Below are positions 1,283 through 38,450 of a stretch of 40,092 bases of DNA, one piece after another; positions within the stretch are counted from its first letter, which is position 1; each line of letters begins with the position of its first letter. Both the position numbers and the translations under genes were made by a program. Source of the DNA: a virus (Duplodnaviria; Caudoviricetes); IMG/VR virus record IMGVR_UViG_3300044262_000062, positions 1-40,092 of that record; one strand, written 5' to 3'. The notes under the pieces are model-generated. The model ran no database searches. It was not told the origin of the DNA and saw nothing but the letters and a program-made list of their open reading frames with translations.

Positions 1283-3614
1283 CCGCATCGCGCAAGCGGC
1301 CCTGCAGCAGGCCGAGCAGCTGCTCGGCGAATGGCTGCCCGAGGGCCGGCGCGACGGGCACGAATGGAAGGCGCTCAACCCCACCCGCGGGGACAGCGCC
1401 ATCGGCAGTTTCTCCGTCAACATCAACACCGGCCGGTGGGCCGATTTTGCGACTGGCGACAAGGGCGGCGACCTGGTGTCGCTGTATGCCTACCTGTTTA
1501 CGCCCGGCGAGCAAGGCAAGGCGGCGCGCGAGCTCGCCGAGCGGCTGGGGGTGGCCATGGAAGACGTCAAGCCTCGGGGCGCGAAAGATGCGCCCGGGGG
1601 CGCGGCGGCACCAACCCAGAGCGGGCCGAGCGCCAAGGCGCGATCAGCCTGGCAGCCTATTTTGCCGGCGCCAGCGGATGCCGGTGCGCCACCGGTGGCC
1701 CACTATGCCCGCGGGCGGCCGGAACACACCTGGTGCTATCGGGACGCAGAGGGCCGGGTGCTTGGGCATGTGTACCGGTTCCGGACATCTGACGGCGGCA
1801 AGGAAGTGTTGCCGGTGTGCTGGGCGCGACACGCGCAGACCGGGGCCGAGGAATGGCGATGGCTTGCCTTCCCGGAACCGCGGCCGCTCTACGGACTTGA
1901 CCGGCTGGCCGCCGCGCCGGGGATGGACGTGCTGGTGGTGGAGGGCGAGAAGTGTGCCGAGGCGGCAACCCGCGAGTTGCCCGGATACGTGGCGATATGC
2001 TGGCCCGGCGGCGGCAAGGCGGTGGGCAAGGCGGATTGGTCGGCACTGGCCGGGCGGCGGGTGACGATCTGGCCGGATTGCGATGCGCAGCTCGACAAGG
2101 CCGGCCAGCTGCTGCCCGAGGAACGCCAGCCGGGGACGATGGCCGCCGAGGCAGTGGCTGCCGCGCTCGCCAAGCACGGATGCGACATCACACTGGTGCG
2201 GATCCCGAAACCGGGCGCGGTGGTGGCCGGCTGGGACATCGCCGATGCCATTGCCGAAGGGATGACCGGACAGGCGCTTGCCGATTATATTGCCGCGCGC
2301 CGCGCGCCGCCCGCGGTGAGCGCTGCCAAAACGGCCCCGCGGCCCGGAAAGGCTGCCGCAGAGGACAAGGACGATTGGCGCGCGAAGCTGCTCTGGAAAA
2401 AGGGCGAGCTGGTAGCCTGCCTCGCCAATATCTTCGACATTCTCAGCCACTCCTCGGAATGGGACGGGGTGGTGGCGTTCGACGAATTCCAGCAGGCCAC
2501 CATGAAGCGCAAGCCGCCGCCCTGGCCGGGCGCGACGGTGGGCGAATGGGACGATAACGACGATGCCATGGCGGCCATGTGGCTCACCCGGCATTTCGAT
2601 ATTGCGCCGAGCAGCAAGATGACCCTGGAGGCGATCGAGACGCTGGCCCGGCGCCATGCGTTTCACCCGGTGCGCGACTGGTTGCGCAGCCTGCCGGCAT
2701 GGGACGGCGAGGAACGGTTGCGGACCTGGATCAGCGACTGCCTGGGCGCGGAGAACACGGAATATACCCAGCGGGCCGGGCGGTGGTACCTGATGGGCAT
2801 GGTGGCGCGGGTGATGCAGCCGGGGGTGAAGTTCGACTACTGCCTGGTGCTGGAAGGTGCGCAGGGGAAAAAGAAAAGCGCCGCGCTCGAGGCGCTGGCC
2901 GGGGAGTGGTTCGGCGATACCGACCTCGACCTGCACAACAAGGATTCGATGTTGGCGTTGCGCGGCAAATGGCTCTACGAGTTCGCCGAGATGGGGTCGG
3001 TCACACGCGCTGAGACCACCAAACAGAAATCATTCCTGTCACGGCGGGTGGATGAGTTCCGGCCCGCGTATGGGCGGCGGCAGGTTCGCTGCCCCCGCCA
3101 GGTGGTGTTTGCGGGGACCACCAACGACTGGGAGTGGAACAAGGACCCGACCGGCGGCCGGCGGTTCTGGCCGATCGACTGCGCCAGCGAGCTCGACCTC
3201 GAAACGTTGCGCAAGCAACGGCCGCAGCTTTTTGCCGAGGCGCTGGCGGCATGGGAAGCCGGCGAGCGGTTTTGGCCGAGCCCGGAGGAGCAGAAGGCGA
3301 TTTTCGACCCGCAGCAGCTGTTGCGCGAGCAGCCGGAAAGCCTGGTGGATGCGCTGCACGACTGGGTGTTCGACCAGATCAAGGAATTCTCGGTGGCGCA
3401 TGCGGTGATGGACGGCCTGAAACTCGACGCCTCCAAGCTCACGCGCGATTTACAAACCCGGGTTGGCGTGGCGCTGCGCCGGCTCGGGTGCGCCAAGGTG
3501 GAACGACGCAACGGGATGGTTCGCTACTGGTACAAGCCGCCAAAGAAAGCGGCAACGTCCGGCGAATCGAGCGGCATACCGGTTCATGAGGAGATTGACC
3601 ATGCGCCATTTTAG
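1257..3614 (+). CDS. Primase-helicase (Toprim domain + VirE/VapE-like P-loop ATPase)
   Basis: WADFATGDKGGDLVSL N-domain; Toprim VLVVEGEK...WPDCD; Walker A-like VLEGAQGKKKS; FAGTTN...DPTGGRRFWPI. Confidence 0.88.
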   Translation: MARPKLDFDRIAQAALQQAEQLLGEWLPEGRRDGHEWKALNPTRGDSAIGSFSVNINTGRWADFATGDKGGDLVSLYAYLFTPGEQGKAARELAERLGVAMEDVKPRGAKDAPGGAAAPTQSGPSAKARSAWQPILPAPADAGAPPVAHYARGRPEHTWCYRDAEGRVLGHVYRFRTSDGGKEVLPVCWARHAQTGAEEWRWLAFPEPRPLYGLDRLAAAPGMDVLVVEGEKCAEAATRELPGYVAICWPGGGKAVGKADWSALAGRRVTIWPDCDAQLDKAGQLLPEERQPGTMAAEAVAAALAKHGCDITLVRIPKPGAVVAGWDIADAIAEGMTGQALADYIAARRAPPAVSAAKTAPRPGKAAAEDKDDWRAKLLWKKGELVACLANIFDILSHSSEWDGVVAFDEFQQATMKRKPPPWPGATVGEWDDNDDAMAAMWLTRHFDIAPSSKMTLEAIETLARRHAFHPVRDWLRSLPAWDGEERLRTWISDCLGAENTEYTQRAGRWYLMGMVARVMQPGVKFDYCLVLEGAQGKKKSAALEALAGEWFGDTDLDLHNKDSMLALRGKWLYEFAEMGSVTRAETTKQKSFLSRRVDEFRPAYGRRQVRCPRQVVFAGTTNDWEWNKDPTGGRRFWPIDCASELDLETLRKQRPQLFAEALAAWEAGERFWPSPEEQKAIFDPQQLLREQPESLVDALHDWVFDQIKEFSVAHAVMDGLKLDASKLTRDLQTRVGVALRRLGCAKVERRNGMVRYWYKPPKKAATSGESSGIPVHEEIDHAPF

Positions 3615-26482: not shown

Positions 26483-27127
26483 CTAGAAGACGGCCTTCAC
26501 CATGAAGTTAAAGGCCCCCGTCTGGAGTGGCGTTACCGCGTCTCCCTTGCTTGAGACATCAAGGTAGTAGTAACGCACCCCAAATTCAATTCCCTCATAC
26601 CTGACGCCAAACCCAACCATCGGCCGGTAGAGCATCACGTCCTTACGGGAAAACTCGGTGAGTAGATTGCCATCCGCATCCAGCACCGCAACCTGAAACT
26701 TGTTCTTGTAGGCGTAGATGCCGGCCTCCGAGAACATCGGCACGCCGAGAATCTTGAACGGACCCTGCACCGCAAGTTCTACACCAGACACGCTGCCGCG
26801 CCCCTGCACCCACACATACTGCCCGCCATCCGGCATGCCGGGCGCGTAGCGATGGTCCCCGACGACCTGTGCCATGTTGTACATCTGGCCGAGCGCCACG
26901 AACGCGGCGCGGTAGCGGTACTTGCCGACCTTCTGGCTGAGCCCGACCGACAGCGATTCGGACTCCAGATCGAACCAATGCGGAAGGCCGTCCTGATACC
27001 ACGCGCCGTCGTGCTGCGCCTGATAACTGGTGAGGCCGGCGCCGATCTCGATGTCCGCGGCTTTTGCCGGCATATAAGCAGCCGCTAACAGGCAGGCGGC
27101 GAGGATTGCATAGTTGATCTTTTTCAT
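26483..27127 (-). CDS. Outer-membrane beta-barrel protein (moron)
   Basis: AAGGAG SD; signal peptide ending AKA; alternating beta strands; C-terminal FMVKAVF with terminal Phe. Confidence 0.75.
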   Translation of the reverse strand: MKKINYAILAACLLAAAYMPAKAADIEIGAGLTSYQAQHDGAWYQDGLPHWFDLESESLSVGLSQKVGKYRYRAAFVALGQMYNMAQVVGDHRYAPGMPDGGQYVWVQGRGSVSGVELAVQGPFKILGVPMFSEAGIYAYKNKFQVAVLDADGNLLTEFSRKDVMLYRPMVGFGVRYEGIEFGVRYYYLDVSSKGDAVTPLQTGAFNFMVKAVF

Positions 27128-28830: not shown

Positions 28831-29106
28831 CTAACCCGTATTTTCGCCTGTGTTCGCGTCTGAACGCGGCATATCATCCGTTTCGAGCCGTACCATGGTC
28901 CCGATAATAATCCCGTTCGGCTGCTTTGTGTAATGCACGGTGACCGACCACACACCGTGCTTCAAGGCACGCAGGCCGGTGACCTTTCCCGGGCATCTGT
29001 TTTCGCGATGCCACTTGCTCCGGCAGTTCTTGCCGGGCGTGGTGCAGAACCGTTGATTCTCTTTGGTCGGCTCAACCGGCTCTTTGCAGTAGTCGCAGGG
29101 TTTCAT
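28831..29106 (-). CDS. Small zinc-finger protein (possible recombination directionality factor)
   Basis: CDYC...FC...C; ATGA overlap with RT stop; ends 3 bp before int start. Confidence 0.65.
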   Translation of the reverse strand: MKPCDYCKEPVEPTKENQRFCTTPGKNCRSKWHRENRCPGKVTGLRALKHGVWSVTVHYTKQPNGIIIGTMVRLETDDMPRSDANTGENTG

Positions 29107-30311
29107 GGCGCCGGTTTCCGGGGAAACGCTTTCGTAAGGTGGCCATTCACGGCATGGCCGCGCCGGCGCAGGCGGCGTGCGAGCTCGATCCGATCGGCAT
29201 GACTGTGCGTGGCCTGGCGCAGGAGGCCAAAATAGCTGTTGGCGGTTTCAAACAACCGGCCCGCGCTCAGCCGTTCGATCCGGTTCAGGCTCGCGTTCAG
29301 TGTTCGCCGGCGCAGGGTGCGGCGCCACGGCTTGACGACCTGGCCTACAAAGTCGATGCCGCGCTCGATCGGATGCAGGATGGTTTTGGACGGGTTCAGG
29401 CGGACGGCCAGCGTTTCGGGCAGAAAGGCCTCAATGTCGGCGTGGGCGGCGTTGAGCCACTGTGGGGATTCGTGCAGGAGCACGAAGTCATCGACGTAGC
29501 GGATGTAGTGCCGGGCGCGCAGGCGATGCTTGGCGTGCTGGTCGAGTTTGTCCAGGTAGACGTTGGCGAAGAACTGCGATGAGAGATTGCCGATCGGCAG
29601 TCCGCGGCCGGCTGACTGATTGAACAGGCTCTTGTGCGGCGGGATGAGCCGCAGGCGCACCGGCGCGCTGCGGAGGATGGCGTCCTCGCGCGGGTCGTGA
29701 AACAGGATGGTGTCGGTGAGCCACATCCACCATGATTCGGTGATCCGTCGGGCGAGCCGATCGCGCAGGATGCGCTTATCGATGCTGACGAAGAAGTTGG
29801 CCACGTCGCACTTGAGATACCATGCCGGCCGCGACCAATTCTGTGTGATGCTGCGCACCTTCGCCTCGAGGCGCTGGGCGGCATAGAGCGTGCCGCGGCC
29901 GGGAATACACGCGCATGAATCGACAATGAACGAACGGTAGAACCGCGGCGCGATGCGGTTATAGAGCAGATGGTGCACGATTCGATCGCGGAAGCCGGCG
30001 GCCCAGACTTCGCGCGGTTTGGGACGGGTGATGACGAAACAGACGGACGGCCCTGGGCGGTAGGTGCAGGCCTGCAACTCCTCATGGAGCTGAATCAGAT
30101 TTCGTTCCAAGTCCTGCTCAAAGGCGAGCGCCGATAGGCTGTTGCGCTTAGTGCGGCGACAATCGAAATAGGCCGCTACCAGTTCCTCGAAAGAAAAATC
30201 AGCATGGCCGGCATCTTCACCGGGTTGATCTGCGGACGGCCCGCGCGCGGAACTCGTTGTTCTTGTGGTTGTAGTTCTGGTTGCCGTTGCCGAAGTTCTG
30301 GTTCCAGGCAT
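29103..30311 (-). CDS. DGR reverse transcriptase (start uncertain; conserved domain begins near 30200)
   Basis: KPREVWAAGFRDRIVHH, LKCDVANFFVSI, GLPIGNLSSQFFAN (DGR-type GxxxSQ), YIRYVDDFV, GIDFVG; nearest in-frame ATG (30311) is inside TR. Confidence 0.93.
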   Translation of the reverse strand: MPGTRTSATATRTTTTRTTSSARGPSADQPGEDAGHADFSFEELVAAYFDCRRTKRNSLSALAFEQDLERNLIQLHEELQACTYRPGPSVCFVITRPKPREVWAAGFRDRIVHHLLYNRIAPRFYRSFIVDSCACIPGRGTLYAAQRLEAKVRSITQNWSRPAWYLKCDVANFFVSIDKRILRDRLARRITESWWMWLTDTILFHDPREDAILRSAPVRLRLIPPHKSLFNQSAGRGLPIGNLSSQFFANVYLDKLDQHAKHRLRARHYIRYVDDFVLLHESPQWLNAAHADIEAFLPETLAVRLNPSKTILHPIERGIDFVGQVVKPWRRTLRRRTLNASLNRIERLSAGRLFETANSYFGLLRQATHSHADRIELARRLRRRGHAVNGHLTKAFPRKPAP

Positions 30312-30336
30312 AGTCCGCGTTCTCGGCGTGCTGCGT
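30228..30336 (-). repeat. DGR template repeat (TR)
   Basis: ACG CAG CAC GCC GAG AAC GCG GAC TAT GCC TGG AAC CAG AAC TTC GGC AAC GGC AAC CAG AAC TAC AAC CAC AAG AAC AAC GAG TTC CGC GCG CGG GCC GTC CGC AGA; nine AAC codons. Confidence 0.96.
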
Positions 30337-30522
30337 TGGTTCGCGCTATCTACGTCGCCCGGCCGAAGGTCCCCATACTCCTGGGTGCCGATCAGCGGGG
30401 GAACTGTGCCGGAGCGGCCCGGCACGGGATGGCCGGCGATCTCCGTGATGCACATGGCGGTGGCCTCGTGAGCCAGCGGCGCGACCAGATCAACAGTCGC
30501 ACGGTCCTGGCCGCCGTGACGG

Positions 30523-30879
30523 TCAGGCAACAGGCGACGATGCATTGTGTTTTCTCCAACCGTTGGCCTGCTTGCCGACGCTGGCGGTGAGCTCGATGGC
30601 CTTGGCGTACTGGCCGGTGGAAATGAACCGCTTGTCCCGGCAGAGCCTCAATAGCAAGTTGAGTTCTTCCAGGCGCTCGAGCAGGTTGTCGAGCAGCGGT
30701 ATCTTGGCCCGGGCGCAATTCGCCTTGAAGACCAACAGCACCAGGTCGACGCACAGATCGCGCACCCGCCCTCCGATCGATACACGGAACGGACGCGGCA
30801 TGTTCTGCACGTAGTCCGTGGCCACGCTCAAGAGGTCGTAGGCGACCTTATAAATCGGCAGTTGGGTGTGGAGGGCCAT
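30523..30879 (-). CDS. avd: Accessory variability determinant (four-helix bundle)
   Basis: LPIYKVAYDL...LLRLCRDKRFIS...VGKQANGW; between target genes and TR. Confidence 0.9.
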   Translation of the reverse strand: MALHTQLPIYKVAYDLLSVATDYVQNMPRPFRVSIGGRVRDLCVDLVLLVFKANCARAKIPLLDNLLERLEELNLLLRLCRDKRFISTGQYAKAIELTASVGKQANGWRKHNASSPVA

Positions 30880-30904
30880 GCTGATGAAAATCTAAATTGT
30901 TAAA

Positions 30905-31399
30905 TTACCGAATAATTAATCTGCGGACGGCCCGCGAGCGGAACTCGTTGTACTTGTGGTTGCAGCCCTGGCCGCCGTAGCCGAAGTACTGGCCCCAGGC
31001 ATAGTCCGCGTCCTCGGCGCGCTGCTCGCAAGACCAATACCACTCCTTCTCGAACATCTCCGGAACATTGGCGAATTGCAGCGCCTGCTCAGCGCGGAAT
31101 GGCAACGTGAAATCCCGATGACCTTCGGCTTCCATTGATGCCGCGGCACTCTTCGCTTTCTCCCATATCGTTTTATCGATGCTCTGACCGACAATCAGGT
31201 GGTAGTCCGGTTCCCCCTCACGGCCACGCATGATGCCGGCGTAGACACCGCCCTGGCCAGGCCAGGGTTGGCCGATGCGCGGGATGCTGATGCCGCGCAG
31301 GTCTGCGGGTGCGGCGCTTCCCGCGAGACGCTGCAAGACCATAGCGATAATCTCGGCGTCGGCCACCTGGATGGTGACGCCGTTGCGAGTGATGTTCAT
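30905..31399 (-). CDS. DGR target protein 1 (DUF1566/CLec-like, 164 aa)
   Basis: AAGGAG SD before ATG 31399; GHRDFTLP...WYWSCE...FRSRAVRR; VR1 at C-terminus. Confidence 0.9.
   Translation of the reverse strand: MNITRNGVTIQVADAEIIAMVLQRLAGSAAPADLRGISIPRIGQPWPGQGGVYAGIMRGREGEPDYHLIVGQSIDKTIWEKAKSAAASMEAEGHRDFTLPFRAEQALQFANVPEMFEKEWYWSCEQRAEDADYAWGQYFGYGGQGCNHKYNEFRSRAVRRLIIR
30919..31025 (-). repeat. Variable repeat VR1
   Basis: 107 bp aligned to TR 30228-30334: 12 substitutions at TR adenines plus one G>T in the 3' GC-rich tract. Confidence 0.95.
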
Positions 31400-31434
31400 C
31401 GGTTGGCTCCTTAAATTGATGAATTGTTGAATGG

Positions 31435-31938
31435 TTAAAGTTTGATCGTGCGGACGGCCCGCGCGCGGAACTCGTAGCCCTCGTGGCCGCAGTCCTGGAG
31501 GCCGTCGCCGAAGTCCTGGCCCCAGGCATAGCCCGCGTACTCGGCGTGCTGCGTGCTGGACCAATACCAGTTGCGGTCAAACGCTTCTTTCGCGCCTTCC
31601 GCGAACGCTTTCACTGTCGCGAGCTCGTGATAGGCCAGCAGCAACTGCAGGCGGCTTGGCAAGTGCCAATCGTCGAAGCCGCCGATCCGAAGTGCCAGCA
31701 TCTTCGCCGCGAGTTCGCTGCCGGCTTTGGCCATCGCCTTGGTGTTGGCGAGCCCGTCGCAATAGCTCGTGGCGCCGGCGACGCTCGTGGTTGAGCTGTT
31801 CCAGCGCATGGGCGCAATCTGGCCTTTTGCCTTCGGTGCGACGATCAGCGCATGGGGTTGATCGCCGATGAAGAAGCGGCCGGCGAAGAACCCGCCTTCG
31901 AAGCGGGTGCCGGGTTTGGGGAGTTTCAGTTTTGGCAT
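31435..31938 (-). CDS. DGR target protein 2 (DUF1566/CLec-like, 167 aa)
   Basis: GGAG SD; DGLANT, GGFDDWHLPS, WYWSSTQ...FRARAVR; VR2 at C-terminus. Confidence 0.92.
   Translation of the reverse strand: MPKLKLPKPGTRFEGGFFAGRFFIGDQPHALIVAPKAKGQIAPMRWNSSTTSVAGATSYCDGLANTKAMAKAGSELAAKMLALRIGGFDDWHLPSRLQLLLAYHELATVKAFAEGAKEAFDRNWYWSSTQHAEYAGYAWGQDFGDGLQDCGHEGYEFRARAVRTIKL
31449..31554 (-). repeat. Variable repeat VR2
   Basis: 106 bp aligned to TR 30231-30336: 16 substitutions, all at TR adenines. Confidence 0.96.
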
Positions 31939-31982
31939 GTTGATAGTTCTCCATTAAGAAGTCAGTTCACACAGAGGTCAGT

Positions 31983-32318
31983 TCACAGCATGTACCCGGT
32001 TTCACCAGGAGAATCGAGCATCCCGCCATCCGGATCATGCCCACCGTTTTGTTCATGCTGCGGGCAACGTCTATACTCGTAACGTTCAAGACTCATCACC
32101 AACCGCAGCGCCATCGCCGCAGTCTGAATGGCTTCTTTCCGTATTTCTTCTGCGCTGGTCTTGTGCGGTTCGTAGACCATCTGCAACATGGCCTTGTTTA
32201 ACTCGCCGTATTCCTCGCCGAGCACTGCCAACGCGTGAAGCGGGTCGTTCGGCCACGTCGGGAATTTCGTCGTTGCCCGCTGAACTTCATCCAGTACTTG
32301 CTCAATCGGTGCGCTCAT
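31983..32318 (-). CDS. MazG-like (all-alpha NTP pyrophosphatase fold) protein
   Basis: GGAG SD and ATGA overlap at 32318; LGEEYGELNKA...KEAIQTAAMA. Confidence 0.65.
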   Translation of the reverse strand: MSAPIEQVLDEVQRATTKFPTWPNDPLHALAVLGEEYGELNKAMLQMVYEPHKTSAEEIRKEAIQTAAMALRLVMSLERYEYRRCPQHEQNGGHDPDGGMLDSPGETGYML

Positions 32319-32488
32319 TTTCGGTTCTCCGTTTGGCGGGCACTCGCATGTCTCACAGGTCCCATCACAGCGTCCGGTTTTGTTGAACATTCGCGTTTCT
32401 CCTCATTCGCTATCCGCGCGCCCACCCGATGCTCGGCGACAATGCGCCGGGCGATTCGCTGGATCAGGCGGTGGTGGGCGGGGTGCAT
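32315..32488 (-). CDS. Hypothetical protein (57 aa)
   Basis: MHPAHHRLIQRIARRIVAEH...; fills gap with tight coupling on both sides. Confidence 0.5.
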   Translation of the reverse strand: MHPAHHRLIQRIARRIVAEHRVGARIANEEKRECSTKPDAVMGPVRHASARQTENRK

Positions 32489-32489
32489 G

Positions 32490-32693
32490 TCAGTCGGCCT
32501 GTTTGCGCAGGAACGCCGGAATGTCGAGCGGCACATCGTCTGGCGGAACGAGGGCATAGGACCGCCGCGGCCCGGGGCCGATGGCAAATTGCACTTCGCC
32601 GTTTTCGATGGCGAGGATGCGGATCTCGATCGGGCCGGTGGTGAGGTTGTCCACCTGCTTGATCTCGCCGGGCTTGCCTTTGAGGATGAGCAT
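32490..32693 (-). CDS. CsrA/RsmA-like protein ending in an FtsZ C-terminal peptide (67 aa)
   Basis: GGAGG SD, TGATG coupling; MLILKGKPGE...IEIRILAIENGEVQFAI; C-terminus LDIPAFLRKQAD-stop. Confidence 0.82.
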   Translation of the reverse strand: MLILKGKPGEIKQVDNLTTGPIEIRILAIENGEVQFAIGPGPRRSYALVPPDDVPLDIPAFLRKQAD

Positions 32694-33016
32694 CAGGGTT
32701 CGCCTCCGTTGAGGACGTGGCGGGCGTAGCAGGGCCAACAGCGGCCGGCTTCGTCCATGAAATCGGCAGTAATGGCTGCCTCGCAGTCCGGATAGAGCGG
32801 TTGGACTTCTCCGGATTCGCACGGCTGCGCCGCGATGACCTTTAGCGCACGCTTGGCGTTGAGGTACTGCAGGCGATTGGCGATCAGCGGCCGCAGCTCG
32901 GCGGCGGCTTGCTTGAGGTGCTGCATGCCGTCGTAGAACGGCGCCTCGCTCGCCTCGAACCGGCGCAGGGCCTGGTCGAGCGCAGTGGCGGTTTCGGGGA
33001 TGGTGTCGTCGGTCAT
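32693..33016 (-). CDS. Hypothetical protein
   Basis: GGAG SD, ATGA overlap; Cys-containing C-terminus (C...C...CWPC). Confidence 0.65.
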   Translation of the reverse strand: MTDDTIPETATALDQALRRFEASEAPFYDGMQHLKQAAAELRPLIANRLQYLNAKRALKVIAAQPCESGEVQPLYPDCEAAITADFMDEAGRCWPCYARHVLNGGEP

Positions 33017-33784: not shown

Positions 33785-33975
33785 ATCTGCCCCGCCGCTT
33801 CGATGCGCCGCGCCAGCGCCCGCACGTCGCTCGACTTGAGCGAGAACTGCGAGGCGGCCGAGCGATGGAACCGGGCCTCGCGTTCGTGCCAGGCGGCGTC
33901 TTTCAGCAGCTGGTCGGCCCAGCGGTTGAGGCGCCAGGCGCGGAAGCGGTTGAGGAGGGTGCGTGCGGTTTTCAT
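33781..33975 (-). CDS. Hypothetical basic protein
   Basis: GGAGG SD; ATGA overlap with MTase stop; MKTARTLLNRFRAW... Confidence 0.6.
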   Translation of the reverse strand: MKTARTLLNRFRAWRLNRWADQLLKDAAWHEREARFHRSAASQFSLKSSDVRALARRIEAAGQI

Positions 33976-35513
33976 GCGAGTTTGAAGCCTCCCTCTTGCT
34001 GTTCGGCATCGAAATTCGCGGCGACGATGGCCGCGGCGACCGGCGGACAGACGGAATTGCCGCACATGCGCACCTGGGCCGATTTGGTGAGCGGCTTGCC
34101 GTTCACTTGCGGGTTGATGACGTAGCGATCGGGGAAGCCCTGCGCCCGGTAGAGCTCGCGCGGCTCGAGCATGCGCATGCCGATGTCGGTGAGGACATAG
34201 GACTTGCCGTCGATCGTGGTGGTAACGAGCTGCAGGCGGTCTTTGGTGGTGATGGTGGGCGCCGGCTCGCGCAGGTCGCGGCCCGTGGTGCCGGAGCCCT
34301 GGCCGTAATACGGTGCCATGAGCGCGGCCACCAGTGAGGCGTGGTTGCCGCCGGCGCAGACGGTGGGCGCCGGCTGATCGAGGGCGCGCATGCGACGGTC
34401 GGCGCCCTTGAGGTTGAGCAGGTGGCCGGTAACCAGCGCCTGCGTGCAGCCTTTGCCGACGATGGTGGATACCGGCTTGCGGGCATCGTGGCCGACGAGG
34501 CCGGTGTTGTGCTGGGCCATGAAGGCGGCCACCAGGCTTGCGCCGTTGGCCGTGGCGGTGACGGTGGGCATCGGTTGCTCTACCGAGCGGGTGCGCGGAT
34601 CCTGGCCGTTGCGTTCGCCGTGGCGCGGGATGAAGTACGGCAGGGCCAGCGCCAAGTGGCCGCCCTTCGGATTCGCCGTTACGGTTCGCAGAGGTTCGTC
34701 GATTGAATGCACCGGGCTGCTACCGTTGTAGTGCGCGATCGGCACGATGAATGGCGACGCGGCCTCCAGCACGAACCGCCGAATGCCGCGCGCGATGCGC
34801 TTGAGCGTGGCCTCGGCCAGCGGGCGCTTGCGCTCGAAAATGGATGGGCACGGCAGCGACCAATCGATGCACTCGGCGGCGGTGCGGTATGGGAGCAGGC
34901 CGTGGCCGTGCGTCGGCTCCGGCCAGCGGATCGGCCGGCCATCGCAGCGGGCGATGATGAACAGGCGCTTGCGGATGGTCGGCGCGCCGTAGTCGCAGGC
35001 GCGCAGTTCGCGCAGGTCCACTTCGTAGCCAAGGTTTTGCAGCTGCTTGAGCCAACGCCGGAAGGTGAAGCCCTTGCGCAGCGGGCAGGGGCGGCCGTCC
35101 TCGAGCAGCGGTCCCCAATCGGCGAACTCCTCGACGTTTTCAAGGCAGATGACCCTCGGGCGCACGGCCCGGGCCCAGCGGATGACGATCCAGGCGAGGC
35201 CGCGGATTTTCTTCTCCACCGGCTTGCCGCCCTTGGCCTTTGAGAAATGCTTGCAGTCCGGCGAGAACCAGGCCAGCCCAACCGGGCGGCCGGCGGCGGC
35301 TTCAACCGGGTCCACCTTCCACACGTCCTCGCAGTAATGGCGCGTGCCGGGATGGTTGGCGGTATGCATGGCCACGGCCTCCGGGTCGTGGTTCACGGCG
35401 ATGTCGACACTGCGGCCGAGCGCCTGCTCGATGCCGAGCGAGGCGCCGCCACCGCCAGCGAAGTTGTCCACGATGATTTCATCCGGACGCAAATCAATGT
35501 TGGCGATCTCCAC
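33972..35513 (-). CDS. DNA cytosine-C5 methyltransferase (no cognate nuclease seen)
   Basis: GGAGG SD + GTG 35513; motif I DNFAGGGG, IV SPDCKHFS, VI ENVEEF, VIII PTIRKRLF, IX-X RELYRAQGFP...GNSVCPP. Confidence 0.92.
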   Translation of the reverse strand: MEIANIDLRPDEIIVDNFAGGGGASLGIEQALGRSVDIAVNHDPEAVAMHTANHPGTRHYCEDVWKVDPVEAAAGRPVGLAWFSPDCKHFSKAKGGKPVEKKIRGLAWIVIRWARAVRPRVICLENVEEFADWGPLLEDGRPCPLRKGFTFRRWLKQLQNLGYEVDLRELRACDYGAPTIRKRLFIIARCDGRPIRWPEPTHGHGLLPYRTAAECIDWSLPCPSIFERKRPLAEATLKRIARGIRRFVLEAASPFIVPIAHYNGSSPVHSIDEPLRTVTANPKGGHLALALPYFIPRHGERNGQDPRTRSVEQPMPTVTATANGASLVAAFMAQHNTGLVGHDARKPVSTIVGKGCTQALVTGHLLNLKGADRRMRALDQPAPTVCAGGNHASLVAALMAPYYGQGSGTTGRDLREPAPTITTKDRLQLVTTTIDGKSYVLTDIGMRMLEPRELYRAQGFPDRYVINPQVNGKPLTKSAQVRMCGNSVCPPVAAAIVAANFDAEQQEGGFKLA

Positions 35514-35515
35514 GG

Positions 35516-35773
35516 TTAGCGCCTCCACCGCCGCGCGATGCGCGGGTGTGCCCACATGGCCACCACGATGCCGGCCGGGCCGCCGGCGAGGGTGGCGGCG
35601 ATTTCGGTCCAGGTGGCCATGGGGGCGAGGCGCCACAGGAAGATCTGCGAGGCGCCGATCATGGTGCTGGTGAACACCGCCGCGACGTAGTGCCGGCCGG
35701 CCACGTTCTGCTGCTGGAAGCCGAGCGCGAAGACGGTGACGAAGGCGGCGGTGAAGAGCATGAGTTCGTTCAT
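35516..35773 (-). CDS. Small multi-TM membrane protein
   Basis: Three hydrophobic segments; FALGFQQQNV. Confidence 0.7.
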   Translation of the reverse strand: MNELMLFTAAFVTVFALGFQQQNVAGRHYVAAVFTSTMIGASQIFLWRLAPMATWTEIAATLAGGPAGIVVAMWAHPRIARRWRR

Positions 35774-35936: not shown

Positions 35937-36239
35937 TCACGGCCTATCCTCCACCGGGCGCACCACGCCATACTGCTGTAGGGCATGCTTGCTGAGTTCG
36001 TAAACGGCGTTGACCGCCTGCCACTGGGCATCGTTGCGGGCGCGTAGCACCTGGTGGTCGGGTTCGCTCAGCCAGTCTTGTGCCCACAGGTGGATGCGCC
36101 GCACTTCTCCGGCAGAGCAGTCCTCGAGCACCTCAAGGACCGCCCGTATCCGGTGCGCACCCGTGCGGTATTCGAGCAGCAGCTCGGCGATCGCGCGCGG
36201 GGTTCGCGCTTCGATGGCGGCGCGGAGCATGGTGTTCAT
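35937..36239 (-). CDS. Hypothetical protein
   Basis: GGAGGT SD; ATGA overlap. Confidence 0.65.
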   Translation of the reverse strand: MNTMLRAAIEARTPRAIAELLLEYRTGAHRIRAVLEVLEDCSAGEVRRIHLWAQDWLSEPDHQVLRARNDAQWQAVNAVYELSKHALQQYGVVRPVEDRP

Positions 36240-36661
36240 GCCGCACCTCCAGACTTCGGGCGTTGATGGTGCAGGTACTTGGCTACCCTTTTTCGCTTTT
36301 CGTCAGCCCTTGCATAGATTTGATCACGGCGAAGATCTCCGGCCTCAAACATCAGGCGCACCGCGCACAATCCATCGCCGAGCTCGCGCTCCAACCATCG
36401 GCGGTTAGTTTCTCCACCGTTAGGGTGCGTACTCTCGTAGCCATGCCGCAGAATTTTGCCGATTGCCTGAATGGCCTCAGCGAGTTCTTCGGTAAGCAGT
36501 GCGAGGCGTTCGCCTTCGGCTGGCGTGAGTTTATTGACTCGACGCTCATCGATAATCCGATCGATCAGCGTTGGGTCTTCGCAATCGGGCGCTAAGCACC
36601 TCAGGTTCCCGCCTTCTACGATGACGATGGACTGCAAGCCACATGACGGGCAATGTGTCAT
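36236..36661 (-). CDS. MazG-like nucleotide pyrophosphohydrolase with N-terminal Cys motif
   Basis: CPSC...C..C; LTEELAEAIQAIGKILRHG...LERELGD (EExxE...ExxD). Confidence 0.75.
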   Translation of the reverse strand: MTHCPSCGLQSIVIVEGGNLRCLAPDCEDPTLIDRIIDERRVNKLTPAEGERLALLTEELAEAIQAIGKILRHGYESTHPNGGETNRRWLERELGDGLCAVRLMFEAGDLRRDQIYARADEKRKRVAKYLHHQRPKSGGAA

Positions 36662-37584: not shown

Positions 37585-38076
37585 CTACATCGGCATTGCC
37601 GTAACAATTCTGCAACTGGCTGTTTTGGCTTGATTATTCACGATCCCCATATTGATCTCGTTGACTGAAATCCGGCCTTTGGCACGCAATGGCTGATAGA
37701 TCACGGTTTGCGTGTCGCCCACGGAGGTGCCGCTGGCGGCATAAAGGCTGCAACGGATTAACGGGTCTTTCAGGTTTGTGTCTGTCGGGTTTTGGATGCG
37801 AACTCGGTGAAGAAGCATGACATTGCCGAATCCGCCCAGGCTCCACTTGTAATCGAACTTCAATTGGCGCACGGGATCCGGTTTGGCCGGCGTCGTAGAC
37901 GTTGGCGTCTCTGGACGGTCGACCATGATGACGCTCAAAAACAGAAATGCGAAAACCGCGCCGACCGTCCACGTGAGCCAGGACGTCTCTTTCTTTATCG
38001 GCGCCCCGCATTTTGGACAAGCGGCGGCGTCGGTACTCACGGTGTTACCGCAATCCTTGCATGTCGTCGTGCTCAT
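37585..38076 (-). CDS. Zinc-ribbon single-TM protein co-transcribed with cI (exclusion/defence candidate)
   Basis: CKDC...CPKCG, TM WLTWTVGAVFAFLFLSVIMV, beta-rich C-terminal domain; ATGA overlap with cI. Confidence 0.75.
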   Translation of the reverse strand: MSTTTCKDCGNTVSTDAAACPKCGAPIKKETSWLTWTVGAVFAFLFLSVIMVDRPETPTSTTPAKPDPVRQLKFDYKWSLGGFGNVMLLHRVRIQNPTDTNLKDPLIRCSLYAASGTSVGDTQTVIYQPLRAKGRISVNEINMGIVNNQAKTASCRIVTAMPM

Positions 38077-38450
38077 GATGTTTTCCGCGTTGGTGGTTTG
38101 AGTTTCGATAGGGCCTCAATGATTGTAATCGCGCGCTCTCGATCGTCATCATCCAAGGAACGAAAGCTGCGGAGCAGGCGAACTTCATCGTGATTGAACG
38201 TGCCATAGATCGACTCTGGTTCGCCCACACCGAGAGGTATTGATTTGTGTTCGCCAGTTGCAAGCCAGTGGGCATCGACGCCCAAGGCCCGCGCCGCGCG
38301 CGTTAAATTATCCCCTTCAATCGTTTTTGTCGCACCGCTCACCCATAGCGAGACCGTCGCGCGGCTGACGCCTGCATGTTTCGCGAGATCGATCTGCTTC
38401 ATGTGCGCTTTTTCAAGCGCCTCGATGATGCGGGACCGAAGGTCACTCAT
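38073..38450 (-). CDS. cI: CI-like repressor (XRE HTH, 125 aa, no S24 peptidase domain)
   Basis: MKQIDLAKHAGVSRATVSLWVSG...ARALGVDAHWLATGE; divergent from cro. Confidence 0.88.
   Translation of the reverse strand: MSDLRSRIIEALEKAHMKQIDLAKHAGVSRATVSLWVSGATKTIEGDNLTRAARALGVDAHWLATGEHKSIPLGVGEPESIYGTFNHDEVRLLRSFRSLDDDDRERAITIIEALSKLKPPTRKTS

Follow-up and report, generated by a model that had tools for sequence, protein, structure and literature searches.

The window, by which we mean the whole stretch of DNA analysed here, is an entire virus record of 40,092 bases with a GC content of 65%. Its plus strand carries terminase, head and tail-like genes, while a leftward early run on the minus strand is headed by a CI-like repressor gene and ends at a serine recombinase gene, a pair that marks the phage as temperate. 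Between these two genes, on the same strand and in a run of small genes, lies the ORF for the 67-residue protein P0001. The features of this region are as follows.

32490 to 32693, minus strand: P0001, a 67-aa ORF whose translation reads as a beta-rich scaffold, a short linker and an FtsZ-type C-terminal tail
32703 to 32707, minus strand: ribosome binding site GGAGG, 9 nt 5' of the ATG; the same GGAGG and overlap occur in loci L001 and L002
32574 to 32693, minus strand: P0001 residues 1-40, beta scaffold predicted to have three strands (2-6, 22-30 and 33-40; pLDDT 82-90), weakly CsrA/RsmN-like
32529 to 32573, minus strand: P0001 residues 41-55, Pro-rich linker (pLDDT about 50-55), unlike the linker of its relatives
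32490 to 32528, minus strand: P0001 residues 56-67 and stop codon, LDIPAFLRKQAD, identical (12/12) to E. coli FtsZ 372-383
32693 to 33013, minus strand: gene upstream of P0001, translationally coupled to it and syntenic in L001 and L002
32315 to 32488, minus strand: small ORF downstream of P0001, starting 1 nt past its stop; L002 has a similar ORF next in order, and L001 has one nearby
38073 to 38447, minus strand: CI-like repressor (Pfam HTH_3/Phage_CI_repr), heading the leftward early run that includes P0001
27169 to 28827, minus strand: serine recombinase (Pfam Recombinase/Resolvase), ending that run

P0001 is a real gene that belongs to a small family and sits in the leftward early run of a temperate phage. 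Its ATG shares bases with the TGA that ends the upstream gene (TGATG), a gene that matched no family in Pfam or PHROG. An alternative in-frame GTG lies further upstream at 32822; the ATG is favoured because two relatives have an overlapping GTGA at the equivalent position. A promoter scan of the window returned matches at the chance level only (2 versus 2.5 expected).

Other genes of the early run were also recorded. A complete diversity-generating retroelement (DGR) lies at 29103-31938 (minus), about 550 nt downstream of the P0001 gene. It consists of a reverse transcriptase (RT; 29103-30545, with a true start that is probably later), a template repeat near 30231-30337, an Rfam RT-15 match at 30334-30539, an Avd gene at 30523-30879, and two target genes for Lcl_C-domain proteins (30905-31402 and 31435-31938), in whose repeats the differences from the template fall mostly at adenines; these targets sit in the early operon, not among the tail genes. 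Beside the recombinase, at 26483-27127 (minus), lies an ORF of 214 aa that starts like a signal peptide and ends in Phe, as an outer-membrane moron would; it matched no family at E 0.01. The early run also encodes a C-5 cytosine DNA methylase (33972-35519, minus) and a MazG-like pyrophosphatase (36236-36661, minus), the latter with a start that resembles a zinc finger.

Translation of 32693-32490 on the minus strand gives 67 residues ending in PPDDVPLDIPAFLRKQAD-stop, and the tail of E. coli FtsZ is printed as DYLDIPAFLRKQAD (PMC4117426). The original prediction had placed a 67-aa ORF with a strong SD sequence here, with a tail at 32528-32490 equal to the end of E. coli FtsZ; its coordinates and the GGAGG both check out, and 12 of 12 terminal residues match the printed sequence. 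From the window's own trinucleotide content, the chance expectation of such a 12-residue match is 3e-13. As in the FtsZ C-terminal peptide (core 370-379, variable part 380-383), these 12 residues form a free C-terminus and follow a low-confidence linker, which in P0001 is about 15 residues long instead of about 50 and is phage-encoded. No match to a tubulin-like GTPase domain was found in Pfam or NCBIfam, and at 67 residues and with no tubulin match P0001 is not an ftsZ gene.

Support for the continuity of this ORF came from run X1, in which one assembled contig is identical to 31900-32618 without a single difference, although X1 is possibly the window's source and the match is thus not independent. 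The match places the tail, the linker and two of the beta strands (residues 26-67) on one piece of DNA. The same run also contains a sister variant with another linker and an N-terminal half that differs as it does in L001.

The P0001 family comprises 11 sequences, namely P0001 itself, eight homologues of 68 aa, the cluster representative P0010, and locus L002. The 182-aa P0010 appears to have been joined to the upstream gene by a frameshift and was rejected as a true fusion; L003 was discarded as a false match. Further searching left the family at this size: a profile search added no member (9 of 1376 candidates), none of 85 genome contigs was a further member, and five handles together with the GenBank phages yielded no further member. 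Among 401 genomes of the family of G006 (Sulfurisoma) there was no member either, the three weak matches being two FtsZ ends and one unrelated long frame. Plasmids held no member (two matches at E 5-9), and the one match of P0001 in a PDB sequence search (E 1.8) was disregarded.

Codon comparisons, which rest on three DNA copies (the window, L001 and L002), gave a pN of 0.016 and a pS of 0.195 for L001 against L002, and a pN of 0.08-0.09 and a pS of 0.18-0.23 for the window against L001 and L002, in each case over codons 3-43. The low pN relative to pS indicates that the gene is under protein-level constraint. L001 and L002 also share the upstream gene and the overlapping start with the window, and the tail Ala codon varies synonymously between GCC, GCT and GCG. 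In the family alignment the scaffold is better conserved than the core of the tail, and the linker of P0001 differs wholly from that of its relatives.

The tail itself is conserved unevenly. One sequence, P0001, reads DIPAFLRKQAD, six read DLPLFLRKQAD, three DLMMLRKQAD and one DLMMSRKQAD. The FtsZ core D-I-P-x-F-L-R (373-379) is thus exact in P0001 and takes the form D-L-P-L-F-L-R in six relatives, so that D-I/L-P-x-F-L is kept in 7/11, whereas the core Pro and Phe are gone from four (P0008, P0009, P0010 and L002), one of which has also lost the Leu. These four still carry RKQAD, under purifying selection. RKQAD is the only invariant part of the tail (11/11), and its net-neutral variable end KQAD stands at the free C-terminus throughout. 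The tail is thus conserved in the family, but exactness is restricted to P0001 and the core is missing from 4/11.

The tail might be a captured scrap of host ftsZ that has no function at present. Many unrelated contigs of runs X1-X4 contain a match of about 90% to the 37-39 nt of the tail, and these DNA matches, together with a linker unlike that of the relatives, make a recent exchange with an ftsZ end possible in the case of P0001. Such DNA likeness, however, is expected for an identical peptide written in GC-rich codons, and the tail, whose codons vary synonymously, is in frame at the stop in all 11 sequences and has arisen on 12 further scaffolds. We consider a functionless scrap very improbable.

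Those other scaffolds were found by scanning viral contigs for the tail alone. The exact DIPAFLRKQAD-stop gave no match there (the phage's own genome was possibly excluded from the set), whereas relaxing it to [ILM]-P-x-F-L-R-[KR]-Q-A-D-stop raised the count to 12 matches, against none for the control, a single scrambled pattern of the same letters. Eleven of these 12 terminate short ORFs unrelated to FtsZ; the contig with L015, L111 and L131, cut at its start, is ftsZ-end-like and was kept out of the cluster count. A pattern without the stop gave 14 matches, seven of which stop exactly one residue after Q-A, as FtsZ does; six others form one family that reads F-F-R and continues in frame for 22 residues, and were treated as chance, and the remaining one falls within an ORF of 1647 residues. 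With a codon-biased pattern lacking the stop there were 15 matches, three of them terminal (two on contigs found earlier) and 12 internal or in another frame, mostly by chance and rejected. A scan for the core-less D-L-x-x-L-R-K-Q-A-D-stop returned one locus, the L001 phage itself, and for this reason the core-less tail looks like local decay.

Pooled without the L015 contig, the tails fall into 12 scaffold clusters that are unrelated to one another and to P0001 (BLAST E 1e-3). In all 12 an acidic residue (Asp or Glu) stands at most three places ahead of the motif, in seven of them immediately ahead, a feature that the patterns did not demand. Six clusters lie directly upstream of an Erf, Sak4 or RecE-like gene, one follows a MuB-like gene, one precedes an integrase-family gene, one precedes an unnamed family and three are unplaced. 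Most carriers are 44-113 residues long with the tail as their sole common feature, and none of ten tail-bearing ORFs from other loci matched a PHROG. A search of phage termini, suggested in the original prediction, thus recovered the relaxed tail (12 versus 0 scrambled) but no exact one, and the proposal that the tail is a mimic gained ground from its conservation in the family and its recurrence on 12 unrelated phage scaffolds.

The Leu/Phe variant was also sought in bacterial genomes. Its 81 loci comprised 66 motif-confirmed FtsZ, seven other FtsZ, three FtsZ-end-like frames, two non-FtsZ carriers and three chance frames; the 66 identify Leu for Ile as a natural FtsZ variant. In four bacterial FtsZ or FtsZ ends (L093, L029, L042 and L075) the tail motif occurs twice in tandem, once internally as D-[IV]-P-A-F-L-R-R and once at the terminus as L-P-x-F-[LF]-R-[KR]-Q-A-D. 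The 4.8-kb contig of L064, which was binned as Actinomycetes, carries small genes in a phage-like run, and one of them, a 68-aa ORF at 2494-2700 (minus), ends in ENLPAFLRRQAD; FtsZ of Actinomycetes is expected to end differently, and the contig is possibly mis-binned. Related peptides were seen elsewhere too. The L008 phage (IMGVR_UViG_3300036762_000104) has, about 450 nt upstream of its motif ORF, a small ORF starting MSTEIPDFLKK, and with an FtsZ-core-like peptide at the N-terminus of this second ORF it may carry two mimics. Internal motifs behind acidic residues occur in a 343-aa phage ORF (L102, D-N-I-P-P-F-L-R-R-Q-A-E) and in a 1647-aa phage ORF (L123, L-D-I-P-T-F-L-R-K-Q-A-E).

AlphaFold2, run on a nine-row alignment, modelled residues 1-40 confidently, as three strands, and the remainder with low confidence (mean pLDDT 73.6, pTM 0.47). 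The original prediction had likened this part to CsrA, and CsrA or its Rsm relatives do rank first in Pfam and in three fold searches, but every one of these matches is below threshold and all concern residues 1-40. In Pfam, PF02599 matched residues 1-38 of P0001 with 13.3 bits (cut-off 27, E 0.085) and matched 2/9 family members at E up to 10. The top match was RsmN 4kji both in Foldseek against the PDB (probability 0.75, E 0.95, TM 0.43) and in VIA (Z 2.7, rmsd 4.1, 42 aligned), and a phage CsrA in Foldseek against BFVD (probability 0.80, E 0.95, TM 0.47). Alignment to CsrA with hhalign reached probabilities of 1.6% and 6% over 34-35 columns, with the tail outside all matches, and the ESM Atlas gave no feature match, its CsrA cluster standing at row 3, below the naming bar.

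In its details P0001 shares with CsrA/RsmA proteins (PF02599, RsmN/RsmF and phage CsrA phrog_9500) the start MLIL..GE and alternating hydrophobic strands, and differs in a four-residue insertion after strand 2, a tail in place of the helix and the lack of the AP motif. As had been predicted, the usual APxxVxVHRxE segment is missing; neither it nor the H-R-E-E segment was found in P0001, which has Gly-Lys where strand 1 of CsrA has Arg-Arg. CsrA Arg44, in the H-R-E-E segment, is given as essential for RNA binding in PMC3791407. In the relatives of P0001 an S-Y-R-C might correspond to the arginine segment of CsrA, at a position outside the reach of the profile alignments. Given the sub-threshold matches and the strand-1 arginines and H-R-E-E that were not found, P0001 was not filed as CsrA; descent from a phage CsrA is possible. 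A homodimer prediction (alignment A1, two copies) scored 0.26 against a mark of 0.42 and is uninformative for either side.

It could be argued that P0001 arose by divergence of a phage CsrA-type protein and acts on the Csr system or on RNA, its tail being the remodelled CsrA C-terminal helix and its FtsZ likeness secondary. The first ranks of CsrA/Rsm in Pfam, Foldseek PDB, VIA and Foldseek BFVD would fit, as would a forced alignment that sets the tail of P0001 over the CsrA helix EEIYQRIQ (helix as given in PMC3791407). True CsrA genes do occur in similar early operons, in L005 and L007 (PHROG E 1e-25), where they lie about 1.1-1.3 kb downstream of the tail-bearing ORF. Such a protein is nevertheless improbable here, since its matches all fall below significance and leave the tail uncovered, its RNA-binding arginines were not found, and a 12/12 match to FtsZ cannot come from drift of a helix. 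A remodelled CsrA helix as the route by which the tail evolved is speculative. With CsrA likeness as a weak lead, the bivalent arrangement that had been proposed, and the alternative of a Csr modulator, draw on resemblance alone.

Taken together, the tail of P0001 is a conserved, non-random mimic of the FtsZ tail on a weakly CsrA-like carrier, with a putative function read from sequence. We tentatively favour an FtsZ-tail decoy that would delay host division, a proposal that we regard as close to probable and for which we infer both binding and phenotype. P0001, presumably translated in the host, would be a small early protein with a copy of the conserved host FtsZ tail at its free C-terminus. 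This tail likely competes with FtsZ for the pockets of FtsA (or of ZipA, ZapD or MinC), and filling of these pockets would delay division during lytic growth, with the beta scaffold likely serving as a carrier. If the scaffold came from a phage CsrA-type protein, P0001 would pair and show two tails, which is the weakest step. Two tails would be of consequence, since one tail alone binds weakly, and avidity of the FtsZ tail was reportedly addressed by Du and colleagues in 2015.

Published measurements bear on these steps. Free FtsZ peptide has a Kd of 20 uM for ZipA, 50 uM for FtsA and 81 uM for SlmA, and I374 and L378 of FtsZ are reported as critical for ZipA, FtsA and MinC (PMC4117426). At affinities of 20-81 uM, a decoy would need high expression or pairing. 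FtsZ fragments 354-383 inhibit growth of E. coli in vivo (cited in PMC10769210), and a delay of division is described as beneficial to lambda and T7 (PMC3961180; PMC9372555). The loss of the core in 4/11 family sequences counts against a simple decoy.

With RKQAD as the only part kept in 11/11, a different use of the tail is conceivable, as a borrowed ClpXP tag that would make P0001 a short-lived, timed early regulator or would occupy ClpX, with division not the target. P0001 resembles the ClpX C-motif-2 degrons of MuA and FtsZ in its terminal R-K-Q-A-D, and the equivalents of R379, K380 and A382 are present in 11/11. According to PMC3983244, ClpXP degrades FtsZ at the full rate only if R379, K380 and the four terminal residues are intact, rates otherwise falling by about 55-75%, while P375, F377 and L378 merely modulate degradation; the FtsZ tail is also listed as a ClpX degron (PMC8138137). 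On the other hand, the P-x-F-L core, hardly needed by ClpX, is present in 7/11 of the family and in 12/12 scaffolds (where the patterns demanded it), and the scan for the core-less form found it at one locus, the L001 phage, apparently by local decay. The second degradation site reported for FtsZ, in its linker, is not evident in P0001. A tag for ClpXP is, in our judgement, rather unlikely, but with RKQAD as the sole invariant part of the tail it deserves more weight than the original prediction gave it.

The tail could also be an address label that docks the scaffold at midcell through FtsA or another reader, with division unblocked and the scaffold doing the work. This would suit a scaffold conserved above the tail core, and tails are also present on large folded proteins such as the 815-residue frame of L041. 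Phi29 p1, as described in PMC3961180, uses the FtsZ ring as a scaffold. The scaffold of P0001 has no recognisable activity, however, and since most carriers are small with only the tail in common, a decoy fits better than the delivery of cargo; an address label therefore seems unlikely to us. The L041 frame (Massilia hydrophila contig) runs to 4033, is VIT/vWA-like by eye and ends in YDLPAFLRKQAD; a further motif, E-R-P-A-F-L-R-R, lies within it.

Known phage inhibitors of division offer a comparison for the decoy that we favour. Like Kil of lambda and HK629, T7 gp0.4 and DicB, P0001 is a small early phage protein, and it shares with Kil a place in a repressor-headed leftward early operon; many of the tail-bearing ORFs lie beside recombination genes, as kil does. 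The lambda kil gene is in the PL operon, where it overlaps gam and stands beside gam, bet and exo (PMC3961180). Scans of 26 window ORFs in Pfam and of 21 in PHROGs recognised no recombination gene, which for this phage reduces the argument from the kil position to 'leftward early operon'. P0001 matched none of the Kil, gp0.4 or DicB families in Pfam and PHROG, nor Kil in NCBIfam. Its model is beta, whereas the core of Kil is a predicted helix-turn-helix (PMC11762379), and none of the three is described with an FtsZ tail. Kil and T7 gp0.4 are reported to act on FtsZ itself (PMC3961180; PMC9372555) and DicB by mimicry of MinD (PMC3961180). A broader proposal, which we hold to be somewhat doubtful, is that phages repeatedly grafted the FtsZ tail onto unrelated small early proteins as convergent Kil substitutes that strip anchors from the Z ring. 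P0001 would then be a CsrA-type protein made two-armed by remodelling of its RNA-contacting end into the tail, and its sisters would keep either the whole core or the ClpX-read end alone.

KQAD is given as the commonest FtsZ ending in beta- and gamma-proteobacteria, with 66 of 77 beta species (Table 6 of PMC4835091), and this ending points to a beta- or gamma-proteobacterial host. The two FtsZ ends from the family of G006 read DIPAFLRKQAD. The best relative of the terminase reaches 47%, relatives of the recombinase (42-49%) occur in 4/151 genomes, and those of the RT (59-64%) belong to Burkholderia, Pseudomonas and Shewanella phages. ZipA is mostly gamma-proteobacterial, which makes FtsA the safer candidate partner.

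A literature search found no paper on a phage FtsZ-tail mimic by title or abstract, with subscription journals mostly outside its scope. A division block by a phage, the likely outcome here, is of a known kind, and the FtsZ tail as its means appears undescribed. The identity of the tail with that of E. coli FtsZ makes the decoy testable at once in laboratory E. coli, and the natural variants of the family (exact core, L-P-L-F core and no core) separate anchor binding from recognition by ClpX. With the signature of 10-12 residues, small phage genes that escape every family library can also be annotated. Mimicry of short motifs is familiar from viruses of eukaryotes, and P0001, if indeed a decoy, would be a clear bacterial case of it. 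Known blockers bind FtsZ or recruit MinC; a decoy of this kind would attack the same hub from the opposite direction, occupying the pockets in which the ring is anchored.
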